DNA of 64,000 nucleotides from Candidatus Zixiibacteriota bacterium. GTDB taxonomy: Bacteria > Zixibacteria > MSB-5A5 > GN15 > FEB-12. How positions within the stretch are numbered: the first letter of the stretch is position 1; each line of letters opens with the position of its first letter. The notes beneath the pieces were generated by a model. The model made no database searches and had not been told where the DNA came from. It saw only the letters and a program-made list of their open reading frames with translations. Shown here piece after piece: positions 2,718 through 62,074 of this stretch. The stretch is from positions 1,064,467-1,128,466 of the forward strand of contig CP070674.1 of NCBI GenBank assembly GCA_020351995.1, in the 5' to 3' direction. Made by a program: the position numbers and the translations under genes.

Positions 2718-3938
2718 CTACGCTTTAGCTGCGGCCTGAGCAATTCGTTGGGTGTCGCGGGCAATCACCAGTTCTTCGTTGGTCGGTATCACCAGTGTGC
2801 GGACGGTGGCATCATCTGTCGAAATGTCCATCTCCTTGCCGACAACCTGGTTATTCTTCGTCTTGTCGAGCTTAATACCCAGAAATTCCAGGTTCTCGCA
2901 ACTGAGCCAGCGAACATCCGGAGAATTCTCACCTACGCCGGCGGTGAAAACCAGGCCGTCCAAACCGCCCATTACCCCGGCGTAGGAAGCGATGTATTTC
3001 TTCAGGCGGTAGCAGTAAGCGTTCAGAGCAAGCTTGGCGTTGGAGTGTTTCTCATGAGCCGATTCGATGATCTCGCGCATATCCGATGATACACCGGATA
3101 TTCCCGCCAGCCCGGAGTGCTTGTTCAACAGCGTATTGGCCTCGTGCAACGTTAGCTCTTCGCGGGCCATGATGTGCAGAATAATGGCCGGATCAAGATC
3201 CCCTGACCGGGTTCCCATCAGGAGACCCTCGAGTGGAGTAAAGCCCATCGAGGTATCGATAGAAACACCTCTGTCGATTGCGGCGACGGAGGCACCGTTG
3301 CCAAGGTGACATGTGATCAGTCTCAGTTCCGATAGAGGCTTACCCAGCATCTGTTCCGCCCGCTCACTGACATATTTGTGCGACGTACCATGGAAACCGT
3401 ATCGCCGGATACCATACCTCTTGTACATGACATAGGGGAGACCATAAATATAGGCATGGGCGGGTATCTTGTGGTGAAAGGCCGTGTCGAACACGGCCAC
3501 CATCGGGACGCCCGGAAGTGTCTTTAAGCAGGCGTTGATTCCGCGAATATTGTGCGGGTTGTGCAAAGGTGCCAGTTCGATCAGATTGCGAAGCTCGGAC
3601 ATCAACTCGGGAGTGATAAGTACTGAGTCTGAGAACTTCTCTCCGCCGTGTACCACCCGGTGGCCGATTGCTTCGATCTCGGAGCGTTCCTTGATGACAC
3701 CGTGATTTTCGGAAAGCAGGATGGAAACCACATACTCGATCGCCACGATATGATCGAGAATCTCACCGGAGACTTTTATCTCCGGCCGGTCGTGAGGCTT
3801 ATGGGTGAGAACCGAGCCCGTCATTCCGATACGCGAGACCGTGCCCTTGGCCAGGGCCGCTTCCGTCTCGGTATCTATGAGCTGATATTTTACCGATGAT
3901 GACCCACAGTTTATTACAAGAATCTTCATTTTTGTCAC
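2718..3938 (-). CDS. ackA: Acetate kinase
   Basis: 406 aa. N-terminus MKILVINCGSSSVKYQL is typical of acetate/propionate kinases. Overlaps the hbd stop by 4 nt, suggesting an operon. Confidence 0.93.
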   Translation of the reverse strand: MTKMKILVINCGSSSVKYQLIDTETEAALAKGTVSRIGMTGSVLTHKPHDRPEIKVSGEILDHIVAIEYVVSILLSENHGVIKERSEIEAIGHRVVHGGEKFSDSVLITPELMSELRNLIELAPLHNPHNIRGINACLKTLPGVPMVAVFDTAFHHKIPAHAYIYGLPYVMYKRYGIRRYGFHGTSHKYVSERAEQMLGKPLSELRLITCHLGNGASVAAIDRGVSIDTSMGFTPLEGLLMGTRSGDLDPAIILHIMAREELTLHEANTLLNKHSGLAGISGVSSDMREIIESAHEKHSNAKLALNAYCYRLKKYIASYAGVMGGLDGLVFTAGVGENSPDVRWLSCENLEFLGIKLDKTKNNQVVGKEMDISTDDATVRTLVIPTNEELVIARDTQRIAQAAAKA

Positions 3939-30864: not shown

Positions 30865-31195
30865 CTATGCTGCTTTTGGTGTACCACAGCACCGCCCTGG
30901 CGGGCTAGGGTGAAGGGAGGGCGGGGTGAGAGCGTCCCGCCCTCTATTCGGGCCTTTTGGAGGTGGTATAGGCCTCTAATGTTTCATACTTACGCGATAG
31001 ACTGACATAATAATCTATTGCGTAGAGCGTACAATCGAGAGACGCCCCCCTCTGACCTCTGTTGAAATAGGCCGCGCAAAAGCAATAATTGCTCGCTGCA
31101 AGCGTAGAAATTGCCTCAACCGCTTCTTCAGCCACACCCCGCCCAAATATATCTGCTTTAATATCAGTCGCTTATAAATTTTCTGTGATTTTCGC

Positions 31196-31224
31196 TTGAC
31201 AACTGCACAAATGTGCAGTATTTT
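31196..31224 (+). promoter_or_regulatory. Consensus promoter with an embedded 18-bp palindromic operator (LexA/SOS-box-like)
   Basis: TTGACA (31196-31201), 17-nt spacer, TATTTT (31219-31224). Positions 31202-31219 read ACTGCACAAATGTGCAGT, with perfect 8-bp arms. Confidence 0.55.
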
Positions 31225-31262
31225 GGTTTTGCCTTTGTAGCATGCCAATAAGGAGCAGAATC

Positions 31263-31475
31263 ATGGCCTGGAATAATATCAACAGCCAGACTCTTTCAGC
31301 GGAACTCATCGAGGACTATCACCATCCCGTCGGAGCCTTTGTCGAAGAAACCGGCAACAACGAGTCTTACACCTACCTGAACGCGGCTACCTGCCCCGAT
31401 TGCGGGGCCGGTATGGTTCGACTGGGGGGTTGCTTTACTTGTATGTCGTGTGGCTTCGCCAGCTGCGGCGGTTGA
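31263..31475 (+). CDS. Small six-Cys zinc-ribbon protein
   Basis: 70 aa from the ATG at 31263; the SD TAAGGAG lies 7 nt upstream and would fall inside the coding region if the tracked 31242 start were used. C-terminus CPDCGAGMVRLGGCFTCMSCGFASCGG. Confidence 0.6.
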   Translation: MAWNNINSQTLSAELIEDYHHPVGAFVEETGNNESYTYLNAATCPDCGAGMVRLGGCFTCMSCGFASCGG

Positions 31476-31521
31476 CTGTAATCGCGGCACAGATCTGTGT
31501 CAAATAGGGGAAGGATTCAAA

Positions 31522-34221
31522 ATGCGTTTGAGTGAACTGGAAAAATGGGGGATACCATCCCGCGTTATTCAACTATGGCGGGAACGACAGGGTGAAACTC
31601 TCCTGCCCATACAGGACCGGGCCGTGCGCCGGAACCTGTTGGGGAAACCGATGCAGGGACAGGAGCATACCTCGGTACGAATGGTTATATCCGCGCCAAC
31701 CTCTTCAGGAAAATCTTTCTGCGCGGAGATGGCCGCCGTCAGGGCTCTCACGAGCCGTGAGAAAACCGTCATGCTTTTTCCGCTAAAATCCCTGGCCGAG
31801 CAAAATTACAGCCTGTTCAATCAAACCTACGGACACCTCGGCGTCAGGTGCCTTATTGTTACCGGTGATCACCCGGAAAATGATGACGCCTTCGCCCGGG
31901 GCCATTTCCAGATCGCCGTGGCCATCTATGAAAAATTCGACTCACTGCTTACAACCTCGCTGGACGCTCTTAAGAACATTGGCCTGATCGTTGTTGATGA
32001 AATCCAGACTATCGGCGAACCGAGAAGAGGAGCCGTTCTGGAACGCTTGCTCACAAAGGTACGAGCGTCCGAATACCAACCTGGCATAATCGGCCTGTCA
32101 GCGGTTATTGGCGATGAAGCCGGATCAGCGGGAAAGCTGGCCCAATGGCTGGGAGCTACCCTGGTCGAAGAGTGCAGCCGTCCCGTCGAGCTTATGAGGG
32201 GAGTGGCTACCGAAGGGACTTATTACTATCGCACCTTCAATAATGGTTTCGATGGAAACGAACCGTTCGCCGATTCGGACCACACCGAAACCTCGTTCGA
32301 CAAATTCATCAAGCAGATAAAGGACACCGAAAATTCCACCTTGATCTTCCTCAAATCCCGCATGGATACCGTCGACGCCGCCTTCAAACTGGCTGCTTCG
32401 GTCAAATGGCCCGAGGCCAAGAAAGCCCTGTCTGAACTCGAGGGAGAGGAGCCCTCGTTTCTTATCCGCTCGCTGCGGCAGGCCCTCAGCCGGGGTGTGG
32501 CTTTTCACAATTCTGACCTGTCCCCAGAGCAACGATTGATTGTTGAGCAAGCCTTTCTCGAAAAAGAGATTAAAGCTCTTTTCTCAACTACTACTTTAGC
32601 TATGGGAGTCAACCTTTCGGCCGATACAGTCTACCTCGAAACAGTCAAATACACTTCTGGAAAGTACGATCGAAGGCCGTCGCTCGAGCCGGTGAGCCGC
32701 TCCGAGTTTGAGAACATGTCCGGCCGCGCCGGACGGCTCACTGGTGACAGGGAAACCTGCCCGGCCGGGCGAGCCATCATTCTGGCCGAAAATAAATTTG
32801 ACAGAGACATACTGTGGGATACCTATATCGCCGGCATCAACACTAAGCCGCTTAAATCCGCCTTCAAGAGTATGCCTCTCGAAGATTGGCTGCTGGATAT
32901 CATAGTCAGTGGCCTTGCTTCCAATAGCGACAGTATTGAAAGTGTCTATGCTCACTCGTTCCGATACCACCTTAATCAAGATGGACTATCCGATGACGTC
33001 ACCGCTGCTCTACAGAGGTTGACCGCTGACGGATTCATCGAGAATAGCCCCGAAGTTAAACCCACTGTATTCGGTTTGGCCACGACCAGAACCGGTCTTT
33101 CCGTGAAGCAGGCGACACACTACCGGAATCAACTGCGGCAGGGTTACCCAAACAACTCCGTTGCATGGGTCGCCTTGGCGCTTAGCGGACCTGATTGGGA
33201 TACTCCCCCCGCCATGTTGAGCCGCCTTGAACAGACCCGCAACACTCCGCTGAGAATGCTCTATCAATGCTATCACCACTTGCTTGACGAGGCCGCTCTG
33301 TTGATTGGAAGAGGGGGAGACCGGAAACCTCTGGCATACCGCCAGACCGCTTCGCTTAAAGCTCTGTTCCTGCTTGAACGCTGGCGGAATCTGGTACCGG
33401 TTCAGCAACTGGAAGAAACTTTTCAAATGCACCTGGGCCAGATCATGCATCTCGGGGAAACTGTCGGCCATCTGGTAGCGGCCATTGCCGAACTAATACA
33501 GTCGAGCGAAGCATCATCGAGCCTTCCGTCGGAACTCAGACAACTGGCCTTCAGCCTCAGGCACGGCATACCAGCGGACCTCAAACCGATACACGACTAT
33601 CTGGGCGAACTGCTCAGCCGCCACGACTTCGCTGCCCTGCACCGAGCCGGTATCTGCTCTCTTCGACAGTTCTGTGAGTTGGATAGTGATGGCCTGTTGG
33701 CGGTATTTCGTGATACTACTAAGTTGAAGAAAATAAATGAGAAACAAGAACAACTTAAAGAGGAGCTTGATATGCAAACCAGATGGACGGTGGCGGAAAA
33801 CCACCATGAAGCAATCAGAACGTCAACTCTTGGCTCGTTGGAGTCAATCGAGGTCGACGGCAGCTATGAAAAGGAGAGATACCTTGTCAGAATCAACGGT
33901 TTCCCGGTTCGCTTGACCGGCAAGTCGTTCAAGTATTTCACCAAGCTGGCCTGGTCGAGGCTCAACCGCGACTCGGGCTGGATTTACAAAGAGGATATCG
34001 AGATCGGTTTCAATCAGGCCCGGTATCTTTACCGCATGAAGGGGGAGATCAACGCCAGTCTGAATATGTCCTGGCCGGTGGTTGAGAACAATCGGCTGGG
34101 TTATTACCGGCTCGATGTTGACCCGTCTAAGATACGCCTGAATGAAAGCAACCTGCGAAACCACCCCGATTACGAAGTCCGGTCGATGTTCTTGAATAAA
34201 ACGGCCGAACCCGTCAACTAG
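31522..34221 (+). CDS. Ski2/Hel308-like superfamily-2 DNA helicase with extra C-terminal winged-helix-like domain
   Basis: 899 aa from the ATG at 31522 (SD GGAAGGA). Q-motif LLPIQ, motif I APTSSGKS (31693-31716), motif II DEIQ (31996-32007), STTTLAMGVNL and MSGRAGR. The tail at 33841-34218 resembles an OmpR/PhoB-type wHTH. Confidence 0.8.
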   Translation: MRLSELEKWGIPSRVIQLWRERQGETLLPIQDRAVRRNLLGKPMQGQEHTSVRMVISAPTSSGKSFCAEMAAVRALTSREKTVMLFPLKSLAEQNYSLFNQTYGHLGVRCLIVTGDHPENDDAFARGHFQIAVAIYEKFDSLLTTSLDALKNIGLIVVDEIQTIGEPRRGAVLERLLTKVRASEYQPGIIGLSAVIGDEAGSAGKLAQWLGATLVEECSRPVELMRGVATEGTYYYRTFNNGFDGNEPFADSDHTETSFDKFIKQIKDTENSTLIFLKSRMDTVDAAFKLAASVKWPEAKKALSELEGEEPSFLIRSLRQALSRGVAFHNSDLSPEQRLIVEQAFLEKEIKALFSTTTLAMGVNLSADTVYLETVKYTSGKYDRRPSLEPVSRSEFENMSGRAGRLTGDRETCPAGRAIILAENKFDRDILWDTYIAGINTKPLKSAFKSMPLEDWLLDIIVSGLASNSDSIESVYAHSFRYHLNQDGLSDDVTAALQRLTADGFIENSPEVKPTVFGLATTRTGLSVKQATHYRNQLRQGYPNNSVAWVALALSGPDWDTPPAMLSRLEQTRNTPLRMLYQCYHHLLDEAALLIGRGGDRKPLAYRQTASLKALFLLERWRNLVPVQQLEETFQMHLGQIMHLGETVGHLVAAIAELIQSSEASSSLPSELRQLAFSLRHGIPADLKPIHDYLGELLSRHDFAALHRAGICSLRQFCELDSDGLLAVFRDTTKLKKINEKQEQLKEELDMQTRWTVAENHHEAIRTSTLGSLESIEVDGSYEKERYLVRINGFPVRLTGKSFKYFTKLAWSRLNRDSGWIYKEDIEIGFNQARYLYRMKGEINASLNMSWPVVENNRLGYYRLDVDPSKIRLNESNLRNHPDYEVRSMFLNKTAEPVN

Positions 34222-34248
34222 GCTTACAGGCTCGGTAGTTTTCCGTAG

Positions 34249-34291
34249 GGCAGAACCCGGTAGTGGTTCTGCCGAAAAGTCTTTTCTTTTT
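34249..34291 (+). terminator. Rho-independent terminator after the helicase
   Basis: 9-bp stem GGCAGAACC / GGTTCTGCC with a 7-nt loop and a T-rich tail. A second hairpin GGCAGGAG / CTCCTGCC lies at 34300-34325. Confidence 0.7.
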
Positions 34292-34513
34292 GACTGTAAG
34301 GCAGGAGCCGTCTTCGACTCCTGCCACACAACTTGACAAACCCCGCTGTATCTGCGTCATTCAATTAGGGGCTGATAAGTGGGAGGACATGTATGCACCT
34401 GCAAAGAATCTGTTTTCTAGTCCTGATGACGGTCTCGCATAGTAAAGATTCCGGGAACAGATTATCTGTAAGGCAGACCTACGAAGACTGATACCATAGG
34501 AGGAATCACATTG

Positions 34514-35287
34514 ATGAAGTACGTCCTATACTTCTCACTGGGTTTGTGGGTATTATCGTTCTGTTCATACGCGGAGGCACAGGGTCCAGCGGGCGATGGA
34601 CAATCGCACACCGTTGAGGACGCTGGTCAGGCAGTTAATTTGGCACTACTGTACACTGGTCTTGACGAGTATGAAAACTTGCTATTTCCACCTGCGGATG
34701 AGATAACTGAGCGGACAACCGTTCGAGCATTTATTCTAACTGATCTGGCCGACAGTGTGAACGGTAGAGACGTTTGGCAGGTATCGTTTAACAACCTGCG
34801 CTTGAGCACCGACGGCATTGTAATTCAGGATTCTGAAGATGCCTTCGACGTCGATGTGACAATTGACTGTGCTACTGGAGCCCTTATTCAGATCCGATCA
34901 AAGAACCGGGTGGCTGGCAAGTTACCCCGGGCTGTTATCGAACAGTTCGACGAGGAAGCCAGACGCAACTCAGCGTTCCGCCAAACCTTTCACGGATTTC
35001 CAGATCAGAAACCCAAGATCTCTCTTCTAGAGGCAATGACTCTGACAATATGCGGCACGTTTCGTGACCATCTGGTTTTAGCGTATTATGTATTGGAATC
35101 TCATACGTTTAGGGGAAGACACCCCGTCACTCCAGTATGGGCAATTCAGTGTATGAGCGCAGATACGATCGTCCATGAAGAGCAAAACTCGGGAGCGCGG
35201 ACAAAGCTACGGGGGAGCCGAAGCGTGATTGACGCCCTTAAGGGTGAAGTTCTACTGGACTTATGGTGGCATGATGGCTCCAATTGA
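34514..35287 (+). CDS. Hypothetical secreted protein
   Basis: About 257 aa. The SD AGGAGGA precedes the ATG at 34514. Signal peptide LGLWVLSFCSYAEAQ. I see no recognisable motifs. Confidence 0.55.
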   Translation: MKYVLYFSLGLWVLSFCSYAEAQGPAGDGQSHTVEDAGQAVNLALLYTGLDEYENLLFPPADEITERTTVRAFILTDLADSVNGRDVWQVSFNNLRLSTDGIVIQDSEDAFDVDVTIDCATGALIQIRSKNRVAGKLPRAVIEQFDEEARRNSAFRQTFHGFPDQKPKISLLEAMTLTICGTFRDHLVLAYYVLESHTFRGRHPVTPVWAIQCMSADTIVHEEQNSGARTKLRGSRSVIDALKGEVLLDLWWHDGSN

Positions 35288-35325
35288 GTGATGTAAAGAG
35301 ATTCCTATCTTGTGGAGGCTGGTGC

Positions 35326-35347
35326 CCCACCCTCTGGGTGGGTTTGT
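35326..35347 (+). terminator. Short terminator hairpin
   Basis: CCCACCC tct GGGTGGG followed by TTTGT. Confidence 0.45.
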
Positions 35348-35537
35348 AAGGCTCCTTTCTACTGGGCACAAATGGGCCAAAACTCCAGTATAACTTATAG
35401 AAGCGCCTTGCGGCGGACCCGGTAATTCGCGGCCCCTGAGCATCGGCGAAAATAAAATTTGACAACAACTTAGAAAAACAATTGCTTGCGTTCAGGGAAT
35501 CCGTAAACAGCCGATTAATATGTAAAACGGTGCCCAT

Positions 35538-38015
35538 ATGATTATAGACAGCAAAGAAAGACTGCCCATTCTGCCCTCCGACAAGGAAGAAACCTACCCT
35601 GTTCTGCCACTCAAAACGGGAGTTCTGTTCCCTAACATGATGCTGACCATCCAGGTAGGCCGGCAGGAGAATTTACGTCTGATCGAGGACTGCAAAAGTG
35701 GTAAGAAGAATTTTATCGCTTCCTATTCTCCCTCGAAGTACGCCGAGGCTGAACCCTCGCCGGTCCATCGGGTAGGTGTACTCGCGGTTGTGCGCGACAT
35801 AAGAACCGGCCCTGGTAATTCCGAAATTGTCACCATTGAAGGTATCAAGCGCGTGGTGATCTCGAAAATAATCGACACCGAGCCGTTTATAGTCGCCTCT
35901 GCCAGCTATCTCCAGCCGCAGGACAAAATCCCCAAAGCCGTTCGCACCAAAGTCGACGAGGTCATCTCGGTCGTGAAGGAAATTACCGGCCTCGATCCGA
36001 CCTACTCCCCGGAGCAGCTCAACGTTTTACGGATGAACCGTGACGATCCCTCAATGGCCGCTGATACCGTGGCCTCAACATATCATTTCCCGCTTGAAGC
36101 GAAACAGACTCTGCTTGAAACAGTTAATCTCGAAATCCGGCTTGAACGACTCCTGGACTACCTCAATGCCGAACTCAGCCGGGTTGTTACCATGCACAAT
36201 ATCAACGCCAACGTTCAAAAGCAGATGGAAGAAGAGCAGCGCAAGCACTTCCTCCGCCAGCAACTTCACGAAATCCGCAAACAGCTTGGTGAGGATTTTG
36301 CCGAGGAAAAAGAGGCCGCCCGAATCAGAAACATCATTAAGAGTATGGCGAAACTTCCCCCGGAAGTCGTTGCGCGTGGTACTATCGAAGCCGACCGTCT
36401 GTCTCAGCTCTCCACCGCCTCGGCCGAATATGGCGTAACTAAGAATTACCTCGAGTGGCTGTTGGCCTTACCGTGGGGCAAGTGCAAGCCGGAAGACTAC
36501 AGCATGTCCGAGGTCGAAAAGGTCCTCTCAACTGAGTATTACGGTCCGGTCAGCCTCAAGGAACAGATTCTACAGAGATTATCAGTGAGAAAACTGCTTG
36601 GCGGTGTCAACGAAGGCCCGACTCTCTGCTTGATTGGCGCCCATGGAACCGGGAAGGCTGCCATAGCCAGAGCCATTGCCAAGGCTATGGGGAAGGAATT
36701 CCTTCGCATATCCGTAGGCGGCATCTCCGAAGTCTCCGAAATAAAAGGTACCCCGCGAACATTTCTCGGCGCCATGCCCGGTAAAATCATCAGGGCCCTC
36801 CGCGATGCCGGTTCGTGTGACCCGGTCATGCTCATCGAAGATATTGACTACTTCAATATCGACAACGACTCCTCGGTCAACATGGCCCTGCTCGAGGCTA
36901 TTGACAACCGGGTCAACTCCCGCTTTCTCGACAACTACATCGGCGTACCCTTTGACCTGAGCAAAGTCGTCTTCATATGCTCCGTCCGCTCGTATGAGGA
37001 AATCCCGGAACAATTCATCCCTCGTTTCGAGATTATCGAACTGCCCGGATATATCGAAAAAGAAAAAATCGTCATTACCAAGCGATACATTATTCCTAAG
37101 CTTCTCAAGAAGCACGGTATCCTGAAAACAGAGTTGAACTTTGCCGACAAACTTCTCGCCCGGATTATCAATCACTATACCATGGAGGCCGGCTTGCTGG
37201 GTCTCTCGCAGCAGCTTGAGAAAATCTGCCGCAAGGTGGCTCTCGAAAAGGTTTCCAACCTTCGCAAACGATGGACGGTCAGCGAGAAGAATCTGGAGTC
37301 ATACCTGGGACCGCCCGTGTACATCCCTGAAAAGGCGGAAATACAACCCGAAATCGGCATTGCCGCCGGACTGGCCTGGACCGGAGCCGGGGGCGACCTG
37401 ATGTTTATCGAGGGCCTCAAGATGAAGGGAGAGGGACAGATTTTCACCACCGGTTCTCTGGGCGAGGTAATGAAAGAGTCGATTCAGGCCGCCTACTCTT
37501 ATGTAAGATCCAAAGCGGATATGCTTGGAATCGACTTCGCCGATTTCAGCGATTTTGACATCCACATCCACTTCCCGTCGGGCGCCATCCCCAAGGATGG
37601 CCCGTCGGCCGGTGTCACTGTCTGCCTGGTTATCGCCTCGGTTATGGCCGAGCGTCCCATCCGCAATGATATCGCCATGACCGGCGAAATCACCCTTCGC
37701 GGAAAAGTGCTTTCGGTTGGTGGTATCAAAGAAAAAGTCTCGGCTGCCTTCCGTGCGGGTATATACAACGTGGCTATCCCCAAGGAAAACCAGAAAGACC
37801 TCAAGGATCTACCCAAGGAGATTCTCCGCAAATCGAAATTCACCTTCCTCGAACGCGTCGATGACCTCTTTGAACTGTGTCTTCTGGACTTCACGCCTTC
37901 CTCCTATACTCTGGAAAAGATCTTTCAGGAAGAGATAAAAAAGGCCAAGAAGAAAAAGCCTCGCACCACCAGGGGAAAGACCAAAGCCGCCCGATCCCGC
38001 GGCAAAAAGAAGTAG
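35538..38015 (+). CDS. lon: LonA-type protease paralog with atypical ATPase motifs
   Basis: 825 aa. Lon N-domain ([20 protein letters not shown]) and protease Ser/Lys dyad (PKDGPSAGV, Ser codon 37605-37607; GGIKEKV). Walker A reads GAHGTGKA (36636-36659) and Walker B reads MLIEDID. The C-terminal tail is Lys/Arg-rich. Confidence 0.8.
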
Positions 38016-60706: not shown

Positions 60707-61993
60707 CTATTCGGTCTTTGTAACCTGCGCCTTGACCCAGGCCGTGCTGACCGACTTCGGACGGGTAATGGCTGTTCCCATGGCACGGTTAAGCACCAAC
60801 TGAGACAGCATACCCATCGAACGGGATACCGAGAAGAGCACCGTGTAGTACTCGAACTCCTTGATTCCCGCCTCATACAGCAGGGCGCCGGAACCGGCAT
60901 CAACGTTCGGCCACGGGTTCTTGGCCTTGCCATGCGCCTGAAGAACCTTCGGTACCACGTTGAACACACGATCTACCGTCTGGAAGACCGGGTTCTTGGA
61001 GAGGTACTTCTTACCGAAGCCGTTGAAGGCCACGAAACGCGGATCGGTGACGCGAAGCACCGCGTGCCCGTAACCCGGAATAACCTTACCGCTGTTAAGC
61101 GTCTCCCAGGCGTAGTCTTCGATCTGCTTCTCAGTTGGAACGCCGCCGAATTTCTCCATCGTTTCGAGAATCCAGTTAAGGCATTCCTGGTTGGCCAGAC
61201 CATGCAGAGGACCGGCCAGCCCATTCAAGCCGGCCGAAACGGCATAGAACGCGTCAGACAGAGCTGACCCAACCGTGTGACAGGTGTTAGCTGACACGTT
61301 ACCACCTTCGTGGTCGGTATGCAGCGTCAAATACAAACGCATCATCTCGTAGTTCTGACCCTTGCGCGGCGCGAGACCCATCATGCGGGCATAGTCAGCA
61401 CCCCAGTCAAGCTTCTTGGATGGCTCAATGAGATCACCCTTCTTGTACTTGATGCGGTAGACACCGGCGGCAACAGTGTGAATCGTGGCGATAATCTTCA
61501 TCGCGTCTTCCAGAGCAGGCTCCCAGTAATCGGTCTTTGCCATTCCTTCGGTGTAGCGCTTGCGGAAAGCCGACTCGTTCTCCATCGCCAGAATAGCGGT
61601 GTCGAGCATTGCCATCGGGTGCGAGGTCTTGGGCATGGCCTTGAGAACTTTCCAGACGTAATTCGGAACGTCACCGAGGGCTTTCAGTTCCTTCTGGAAC
61701 AGTGCCAGCTCGTCGGCGGAGGGCAATTCGCCAGTAATCAACAACCAGAAGATTTCCTCAGGAAGCTTGTCCTGAATGTCCAGAATCGGTCTGCCGCGGA
61801 TAATCAAACCCTTATCAGGCTCAACAACCGAGGTGTCGCAGATCATGCCCTTCACTCCACGCATACCGCCAAAAGCCTGAGCGACCGTCACATCAGAGAT
61901 GACTTTGCCCCCATGCCCTTTGAGAATTCCGACTCTCTCTTCGCGAAGTTTCGGGATAAGTCCGGCCAGTTTTTCTTTCAGTGTTTTGGCCAT
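60707..61993 (-). CDS. gltA: Citrate synthase
   Basis: 428 aa. Signature GYGHAVLRVTDPR and catalytic-region motifs (HTDHEGGNVS, SVSRSMG). Confidence 0.92.
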   Translation of the reverse strand: MAKTLKEKLAGLIPKLREERVGILKGHGGKVISDVTVAQAFGGMRGVKGMICDTSVVEPDKGLIIRGRPILDIQDKLPEEIFWLLITGELPSADELALFQKELKALGDVPNYVWKVLKAMPKTSHPMAMLDTAILAMENESAFRKRYTEGMAKTDYWEPALEDAMKIIATIHTVAAGVYRIKYKKGDLIEPSKKLDWGADYARMMGLAPRKGQNYEMMRLYLTLHTDHEGGNVSANTCHTVGSALSDAFYAVSAGLNGLAGPLHGLANQECLNWILETMEKFGGVPTEKQIEDYAWETLNSGKVIPGYGHAVLRVTDPRFVAFNGFGKKYLSKNPVFQTVDRVFNVVPKVLQAHGKAKNPWPNVDAGSGALLYEAGIKEFEYYTVLFSVSRSMGMLSQLVLNRAMGTAITRPKSVSTAWVKAQVTKTE

Positions 61994-62054: not shown

Positions 62055-62074
62055 AATGTGAAACATTTCACATT
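62055..62074. promoter_or_regulatory. Perfect 20-bp palindrome, Rex/CRP-FNR-type operator candidate at the gltA promoter
   Basis: AATGTGAAACATTTCACATT contains both TGTGAA-N4-TTCACA and TGTGA-N6-TCACA. It lies just downstream of the minus-strand -10. Confidence 0.5.

Follow-up and report, generated by a model that had tools for sequence, protein, structure and literature searches.

A palindrome filling the promoter spacer of a Zn-ribbon/Hel308-like helicase operon in Zixibacteria is very probably a LexA operator

The promoter of an operon encoding a small Zn-ribbon protein and a Hel308/Ski2-like DNA helicase contains, between its -35 and -10 hexamers, a perfect palindrome that, judging from its sequence and its recurrence in related genomes, very probably binds LexA, the repressor of the DNA-damage response. 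We consider it highly likely that the palindrome acts as an SOS box at which the LexA of this lineage represses the Zn-ribbon/helicase promoter until DNA damage occurs. Classical SOS control is the best-supported reading of the data presented below.

The operon lies near the middle of the window, by which we mean the whole 64-kb stretch of DNA that was analyzed. Positions 31196-31224 consist of TTGACA, the 17-nt spacer ACTGCACAAATGTGCAG, and TATTTT. The -35 hexamer TTGACA (31196..31201, plus strand) and the -10 hexamer TATTTT, of the form TAnnnT (31219..31224, plus strand), were read from the sequence and are both present in the promoter scan list, in which the site scores 10 of 12 consensus matches with a spacer of 17 nt. 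The candidate LexA operator (31202..31219, not assigned to either strand) is an 18-bp inverted repeat, ACTGCACA-AA-TGTGCAGT, with 8-bp arms, an AA center, no mismatch, and the core CTGCAC-N4-GTGCAG. Its final T doubles as the initial T of the -10 hexamer. The promoter was called by consensus and conservation, and the operator overlaps it, covering the entire spacer between the two hexamers. The description given in the first-pass annotation, a perfect 18-bp palindrome filling the spacer of a TTGACA-N17-TATTTT consensus promoter, agreed in every detail with the sequence and with the promoter scan. Transcription is predicted to start at approximately position 31231, upstream from a Shine-Dalgarno sequence, AAGGAG (31251..31256, plus strand, read from the sequence), located 6 nt 5' of the ATG of the Zn-ribbon gene.

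Nine perfect palindromes with 8-bp arms and a spacer of 0-4 nt were observed in the window versus 5.4 ± 2.7 in Markov simulations; the palindrome by itself is therefore statistically unremarkable there. For the motif TGCAC-N4-GTGCA with at most one mismatch, 1.2 chance occurrences are expected in the window. Pattern and position weight matrix (PWM) scans of the 64 kb revealed no second copy of the palindrome or of its core. The PWM, which was built from 13 independently found sites and has an information content of 22 bits, gave a score of 30.1 bits for the site under study, 7.1 bits for the next best site in the window, and 21-24 bits for the lexA sites of Zixibacteria described below. Among the sites read, the operator of the window is the nearest to the consensus. 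It is conservation and context in other genomes that raise the palindrome above chance.

The first gene behind the promoter (31263..31475, plus strand) encodes a 70-residue Zn-ribbon protein with a Cys-rich C-terminus, CPDCG-x10-CFTCMSCGFASC. In NCBIfam, this protein weakly resembles the Zn finger found at the C-terminus of class II (B12-dependent) ribonucleotide reductases (E 2e-7), and its similarity to entries of the PDB is limited to generic Zn ribbons. The second gene (31522..34221, plus strand) begins 46 nt past the first and encodes an 899-residue superfamily 2 DNA helicase of the Hel308/Ski2-like type, as assigned by Pfam (DEAD and Helicase_C) and by the ski2-like and Hel308 models of NCBIfam (E 6e-81 to 1e-59). 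The nearest solved structures are those of archaeal Hjm/Hel308 (2zj2 and 2p6r, E 1e-51). The two genes are adjacent at every locus examined and are probably co-transcribed. The Zn-ribbon gene heads the operon in every orthologous locus, with a conserved C-terminus and a variable N-terminus. The earlier statement that the regulated genes encode a DNA helicase applied to the second gene, whereas the first encodes the Zn-ribbon protein. In the 46-nt gap between the two genes, a 12-bp perfect palindrome, CACAGATCTGTG, was observed at 31488-31499; it is not kept in the chromosomal locus L001.

Genes encoding ExbD and a TonB-like protein are located upstream from the palindrome on the same strand. 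Lon protease is encoded directly 3' of the helicase gene in deeply diverged Zixibacteria (L001, L158, L245, L246, L263, and L264). In the window, the interval between the helicase and Lon genes (34222-38015) contains an open reading frame for a secreted-looking protein of 258 residues (34511-35287) with no family match. The order ExbD-TonB, Zn-ribbon, helicase, and Lon is conserved on chromosomes. The remaining genes of the 64-kb window are housekeeping genes, and neither lexA, recA, nor other SOS-type genes were found among them. Small open reading frames on the minus strand (30944-31248) were considered as candidates for a local repressor and rejected, their translations being implausible. 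Participation of the helicase in a Hachiman defense system was also rejected because HamA (DUF1837) is absent and the housekeeping synteny is conserved; the HamB models of PADLOC matched only the general helicase core, and the neighboring genes had no PADLOC match. The resemblance of the Zn ribbon to the Zn finger of ribonucleotide reductases raised the possibility of an NrdR box, which was rejected: the arms of the NrdR consensus are spaced differently, NrdR boxes come in tandem pairs, and the lexA and imuA contexts reported below favor LexA.

Orthologous loci were retrieved by means of the helicase protein rather than the motif, and a metagenome scan for the helicase yielded 13 loci. Promoters were read at L001 (CP070756.1), at the metagenomic loci L002, L003, L005, L007, L008, and L009, and at L263 and L264 (CP070777.1). 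The orthologous helicases are 51-64% identical to that of the window. The module TTGACA-A[C/G]TGCAC[A/G][A/T]ATGT[G/T]CAG-TAnnnT was present in all 10 promoters read, including that of the window; these correspond to nine distinct sequences since L002 and L003 are identical. The -35 hexamer TTGACA was invariant in the 10 promoters, and the palindrome displayed at most two changes in spite of the divergence of the helicases. The -10 hexamers of the orthologues (TATTAT, TATACT, TATTTT, TATTCT, TATCAT, and TATTGT) were constant for TAnnnT and variable at the middle bases. The intergenic DNA surrounding the -35, palindrome, and -10 module diverges among the orthologous operons.

The first-pass annotation had proposed that the palindrome matches LexA/SOS-box patterns and that the motif be sought upstream of lexA and other SOS genes. 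Six distinct lexA loci of other Zixibacteria, including those of the complete genomes LS998015.1 and CP070796.1, were identified by LexA homology and not by the motif. These loci belong to clades whose helicases are 31-44% identical to that of the window, and none comes from the genome of the window itself. The motif was found upstream of lexA in all six, in the form CTG[C/A]AC-N4-G[T/G/A]GCAG between a TTGAC[A/G] -35 hexamer and a TAnnnT -10 hexamer (listed as TATTAA in one case). The promoters read TTGACA-TCTGAACATCTGTGCAG-TAGTTT in LS998015.1, TTGACA-GGTGAACATTTGTGCAG-TAAATT in CP070796.1, and, in the third to sixth loci, TTGACA-CCCTGCACATCAGTGCAG-TATCAT, TTGACG-ACTGCACGGATGGGCAG-TATAGT, TTGACA-GCTGAACATCTGTGCAG-TAAATT, and TTGACA-ACTGCACGTATGAGCAG-TATTAA. 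Each lexA site has the same operator-in-spacer module as the window, with one arm mismatch, and three of the Zixibacteria lexA operators have a GAAC left arm (CTGAAC-N4-GTGCAG). At five of the six loci, lexA forms an operon with genes encoding a DUF6504 protein and an IMS (Y-family) polymerase. Both lexA and the Zn-ribbon/helicase operon have the operator in four metagenome-assembled genomes (MAGs): RS_7_36 (helicase L245, lexA L259), contig_8898 of MFD05942.bin.1.428 (L191 and L257, respectively), CAZTYE01 (L176 and L253), and CAVPQS01 (L138 and L175). The presence of this operator type at all six lexA loci and at other SOS-type operons supports the LexA/SOS-box assignment.

The LexA proteins of Zixibacteria consist of LexA_DNA_bind and Peptidase_S24 domains (Pfam). 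Alignment with the LexA proteins of E. coli and B. subtilis revealed that the motifs V[PA]AG, G[ED]SM, and VK[RK] are kept in seven of seven Zixibacteria-type sequences. These proteins are canonical LexA repressors in which the site of Ala-Gly cleavage and the catalytic Ser and Lys residues are retained. The LexA of the CAZTYE01 locus (L253), used as a query, matched 7,819 proteins at E ≤ 1e-20, and every named protein among the best 120 of the 7,819 matches bore the label Zixibacteria or FCB group. LexA proteins occur widely in Zixibacteria. Hundreds of Zixibacteria LexA clusters were present, and no LexA from the clade of the window was found among the best 120 of the 7,819 matches.

One or two copies of a second conserved element, ATCACA(T), were observed approximately 40-70 nt upstream from the -35 hexamer in lexA promoters of Zixibacteria (L255, ~3820-3850; L256, ~3880-3910; L258 and L259, ~2385-2410; L260, ~2395-2410; L262, ~2375-2400). 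The helicase promoter of the window does not contain it.

The distribution of the operator was explored with the pattern BACTGCACRWWYGTGCAGTV in 185,579 genomes, one per species, in which at least 120 loci matched. The flanking B and V of this pattern leave out promoters with TTGACA directly upstream. An arithmetic estimate of the number of matches expected by chance in all phyla is approximately 78. The 120 loci listed comprised 32 from Candidatus Eisenbacteria, 14 from 'uncultured Ignavibacteria', six from Zixibacteria, one from Fibrobacteria, 19 from unlabelled bacterial MAGs, and 48 from other phyla, a grouping based on record titles in which the taxonomic labels of MAGs are unreliable and the frequencies are not quantitative. 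A -35-like TTG bordered the palindrome at one end but not the other in 63 of the 72 listed loci of the first five groups versus 7 of the 48 loci of other phyla. Gene families were counted only if confirmed by phmmer or Pfam. Of the 120 listed loci, at least 19 have a lexA homologue next to the site (phmmer E 1e-27 to 1e-44 versus the LexA proteins of E. coli and B. subtilis). Sites were also found, among the matches listed, upstream of genes for DUF6504 and IMS (Y-family) polymerases, upstream of operons combining lexA, an IMS gene, an MrfA-like helicase gene, and an RNase H-fold exonuclease gene, upstream of imuA-imuB-dnaE2 cassettes (L156, L170, L209, L218, and L239), before DUF72 genes, and before further Zn-ribbon and helicase operons. 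In a Fibrobacteria MAG, a dnaE2-like gene is preceded by the extended motif. The search for the motif at SOS genes other than lexA was accordingly positive in related MAGs, at imuA-imuB-dnaE2 and at Y-family polymerase operons. The matches at L137, L203, L204, L205, L206, and L226 were rejected as operators: they fall in a conserved coding stretch (...GFSDCTFVQWD...) of unrelated phyla and were attributed to coding coincidence. A scan of viral contigs with a 14-base pattern gave at least 120 matches, all in unrelated contigs.

Three additional observations were made on these loci. At the imuA-imuB-dnaE2 cassettes (same five loci), the operator is located 3' of a promoter of the form TTGACG-18 nt-TAATAT, 2-9 nt before the start codon of imuA. 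This placement differs from the in-spacer type, and a nearly leaderless transcript follows from it. The DUF6504 protein, of approximately 82-88 residues, is encoded between lexA and the Y-family polymerase gene or directly behind the operator (e.g. L253, ~3130-3470; L175; L255, 4746-4994; and many Eisenbacteria loci). It was found in at least 26 of the 120 motif-scan loci listed and looks like a regular, uncharacterized component of SOS cassettes in these phyla. Finally, the MAGs labelled 'uncultured Ignavibacteria' (L156, L167, L170, L176, L181, L186, L187, L209, L218, L220, L230, L239, L248, and L253) encode LexA proteins whose nearest named relatives are from Zixibacteria, and the flanks of their promoters differ very little from those of Zixibacteria loci such as L210. 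On these sequence relationships, the labels are probably wrong.

The LexA box of Fibrobacter succinogenes is reportedly TGCNC-N4-GTGCA (Mazon et al., 2004, Microbiology 150:3783). The window sequence TGCACAAATGTGCA, with the 14-bp core TGCAC-AAAT-GTGCA, fits every specified position of this reported consensus. Fibrobacter and Zixibacteria both belong to the FCB group, and the helicase of the window is 100% identical to a protein of a Candidatus Zixiibacteriota MAG. In contrast to the Fibrobacter box, the site of the window is a longer, 18-bp dyad, A-CTGCAC-N4-GTGCAG-T, set in fixed phase to the two promoter hexamers. The organism is another one, as are the members of the regulon and the cognate LexA, and all are uncharacterized. 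The Gram-positive Cheo/DinR box, bound by the LexA of Bacillus subtilis, is CGAAC-N4-GTTCG. It has the same geometry as the window site, with arms of 5-6 bp around a 4-bp center, but the arms of the latter are GCAC/GTGC rather than GAAC/GTTC, and it contains no GAAC half.

The SOS box of Escherichia coli is CTGT-N8-ACAG (consensus TACTGTATATATATACAGTA), at which the LexA dimer occludes the promoter. Outer CTG and CAG triplets separated by 10 bp are common to this box and to the window site, and promoter occlusion by a LexA dimer, as proposed for the window, would be a second common feature. A direct count bore out what the first-pass annotation had reported on the core (TGCAC-N4-GTGCA), on the skeleton (CTG-N10-CAG), and on the match at 14 of the 20 positions of the E. 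coli consensus. The window site is nevertheless CTGC-N8-GCAG, its center is not an AT repeat, and it falls outside the CTGT-N8-ACAG class. Of the two likenesses initially put forward, that to the reported Fibrobacter-type box was retained, whereas that to the gammaproteobacterial box is limited to the skeleton.

In Bacteroidetes, comparative genomics has identified the non-canonical LexA motifs GGA-N5-TCC and CTAA-N5-TTAG, and the SOS regulons, which are under the control of non-canonical S24 proteins, include imuA-imuB-dnaE2 and Y-family polymerase genes (PMC8565304). Membership of the FCB group and both types of targets are common to Bacteroidetes and Zixibacteria, but the Bacteroidetes motifs are unrelated to that of the window and the LexA of Zixibacteria is canonical. 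In related MAGs, the operator type of the window is positioned to control imuA-imuB-dnaE2 cassettes and MrfAB-type helicase/exonuclease pairs. Since the same operator is present at imuA-imuB-dnaE2 and MrfA-like operons, the operon of the window would belong to an SOS-type regulon. Its helicase differs from MrfA, which combines DEAD and MZB domains, and from SOS helicases of the DinG/UvrD type in being Hel308/Ski2-like and in having a Zn-ribbon partner.

Four other explanations of the palindrome were considered. The most serious, which we nonetheless regard as improbable, is that a global regulator other than LexA binds the palindrome and governs lexA, the translesion-polymerase cassettes, and the helicase operon, LexA itself binding elsewhere. 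The identification of LexA as the binder rests on association throughout, and the ATCACA repeats upstream from the lexA promoters of Zixibacteria indicate that further sites exist there. However, the motif belongs to the class of GAAC/GCAC-N4-GTGC/GTTC dyads that experiments have established as LexA boxes, the helicase promoter of the window lacks the ATCACA element, and a second regulator is less parsimonious than LexA. LexA as a rule autoregulates via the strongest palindrome in its own promoter, which also counts against this explanation. We give little credence to the palindrome being a local operator through which the Zn-ribbon protein regulates its own operon. The Zn-ribbon gene always comes first behind the operator, and Zn ribbons can bind nucleic acids, but operons lacking a Zn-ribbon gene (lexA, DUF6504-IMS, and imuA-imuB-dnaE2) have the same operator at the same promoter position. 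Moreover, the N-terminal half of the protein is poorly conserved whereas the operator is nearly invariant.

It is just as unlikely that the hairpin and the T-rich tail form an intrinsic terminator for the upstream tonB-like gene. The terminator scan did list 31202-31219 followed by ATTTTGGTTT, and the corresponding RNA hairpin has a predicted stability of -11.6 kcal/mol (z = -2.25). Conservation does not extend to the T tract, where the orthologues have ATTATGGC, ATACTTCC, ATTCTGGG, and ATCATACT; the conserved parts are instead TTGACA upstream and TAnnnT downstream. At the lexA loci, there is no transcript to terminate because the upstream genes (purD or DUF1573 genes) are divergent, on the opposite strand, and in the window a GC-rich hairpin is already located behind tonB (~30919-30942). 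A functionless chance feature is scarcely conceivable. Palindromes with 8-bp arms are, as stated above, not rarer than expected in the window, but this explanation is refuted by conservation, the palindrome being nearly invariant across loci whose proteins are 31-64% identical and recurring at lexA.

Under the preferred reading, SOS control by LexA, a LexA dimer bound to CTGCAC-N4-GTGCAG would cover the spacer between the -35 and -10 hexamers together with the first base of the -10 hexamer. RNA polymerase would be excluded because of this coverage, and the Zn-ribbon and Hel308-like helicase genes would remain off. DNA damage would lead to RecA-stimulated self-cleavage of LexA at the Ala-Gly site by the Ser/Lys dyad, freeing the near-consensus promoter and allowing expression of the operon. 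Since the palindrome is perfect and the lexA operators are each mismatched, few members of the regulon are expected to be repressed as tightly or induced as late as the helicase operon, whose induction would lag behind that of lexA.

A broader proposal, which in our judgment has an even chance of being correct, is that a single SOS promoter cassette of fixed design, with a Fibrobacter-type LexA dyad as its spacer, serves Zixibacteria and apparently also Eisenbacteria, and that the operator nearest to the consensus among those read guards an undescribed SOS function combining a Hel308-type helicase and a Zn-ribbon protein. In such a cassette, the dyad would exactly fill the spacer of 17-18 nt and provide the -10 hexamer with its first T. 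The Zn-ribbon partner would be a relative of the redox Zn finger that class II ribonucleotide reductases carry, and the two genes would apparently form a core SOS operon. Hel308-type fork-repair helicases are known mainly from archaea and eukaryotes. If the proposal is true, such helicases belong to the core DNA-damage response of one bacterial phylum.

The type of switch, a LexA operator within a promoter, is well known, and it is this example that is new. A literature search retrieved no relevant link between LexA and Zixibacteria and no description of a Zixibacteria SOS regulon. For the uncultured phyla Zixibacteria and Eisenbacteria, the analysis provides a candidate LexA motif together with a first outline of the SOS regulon. 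The Fibrobacter-type LexA box would accordingly extend beyond Fibrobacter, which bears on the evolution of LexA motifs. The Hel308-like helicase and its Zn-ribbon partner are marked as putative damage-inducible bacterial genes, offering a functional lead for both, and the PWM is directly usable for the annotation of SOS genes in these MAGs. The promoter-operator cassette common to several phyla and the helicase/Zn-ribbon operon itself are by-products of the analysis that deserve attention.

Elsewhere in the window, a perfect CRP-type palindrome, AATGTGAAACATTTCACATT (TGTGA-N6-TCACA), was observed at 62055-62074. It is located 62-81 nt upstream from the citrate synthase gene (60707-61993, minus strand) and is possibly a site for a regulator of the CRP/FNR family controlling entry into the TCA cycle.
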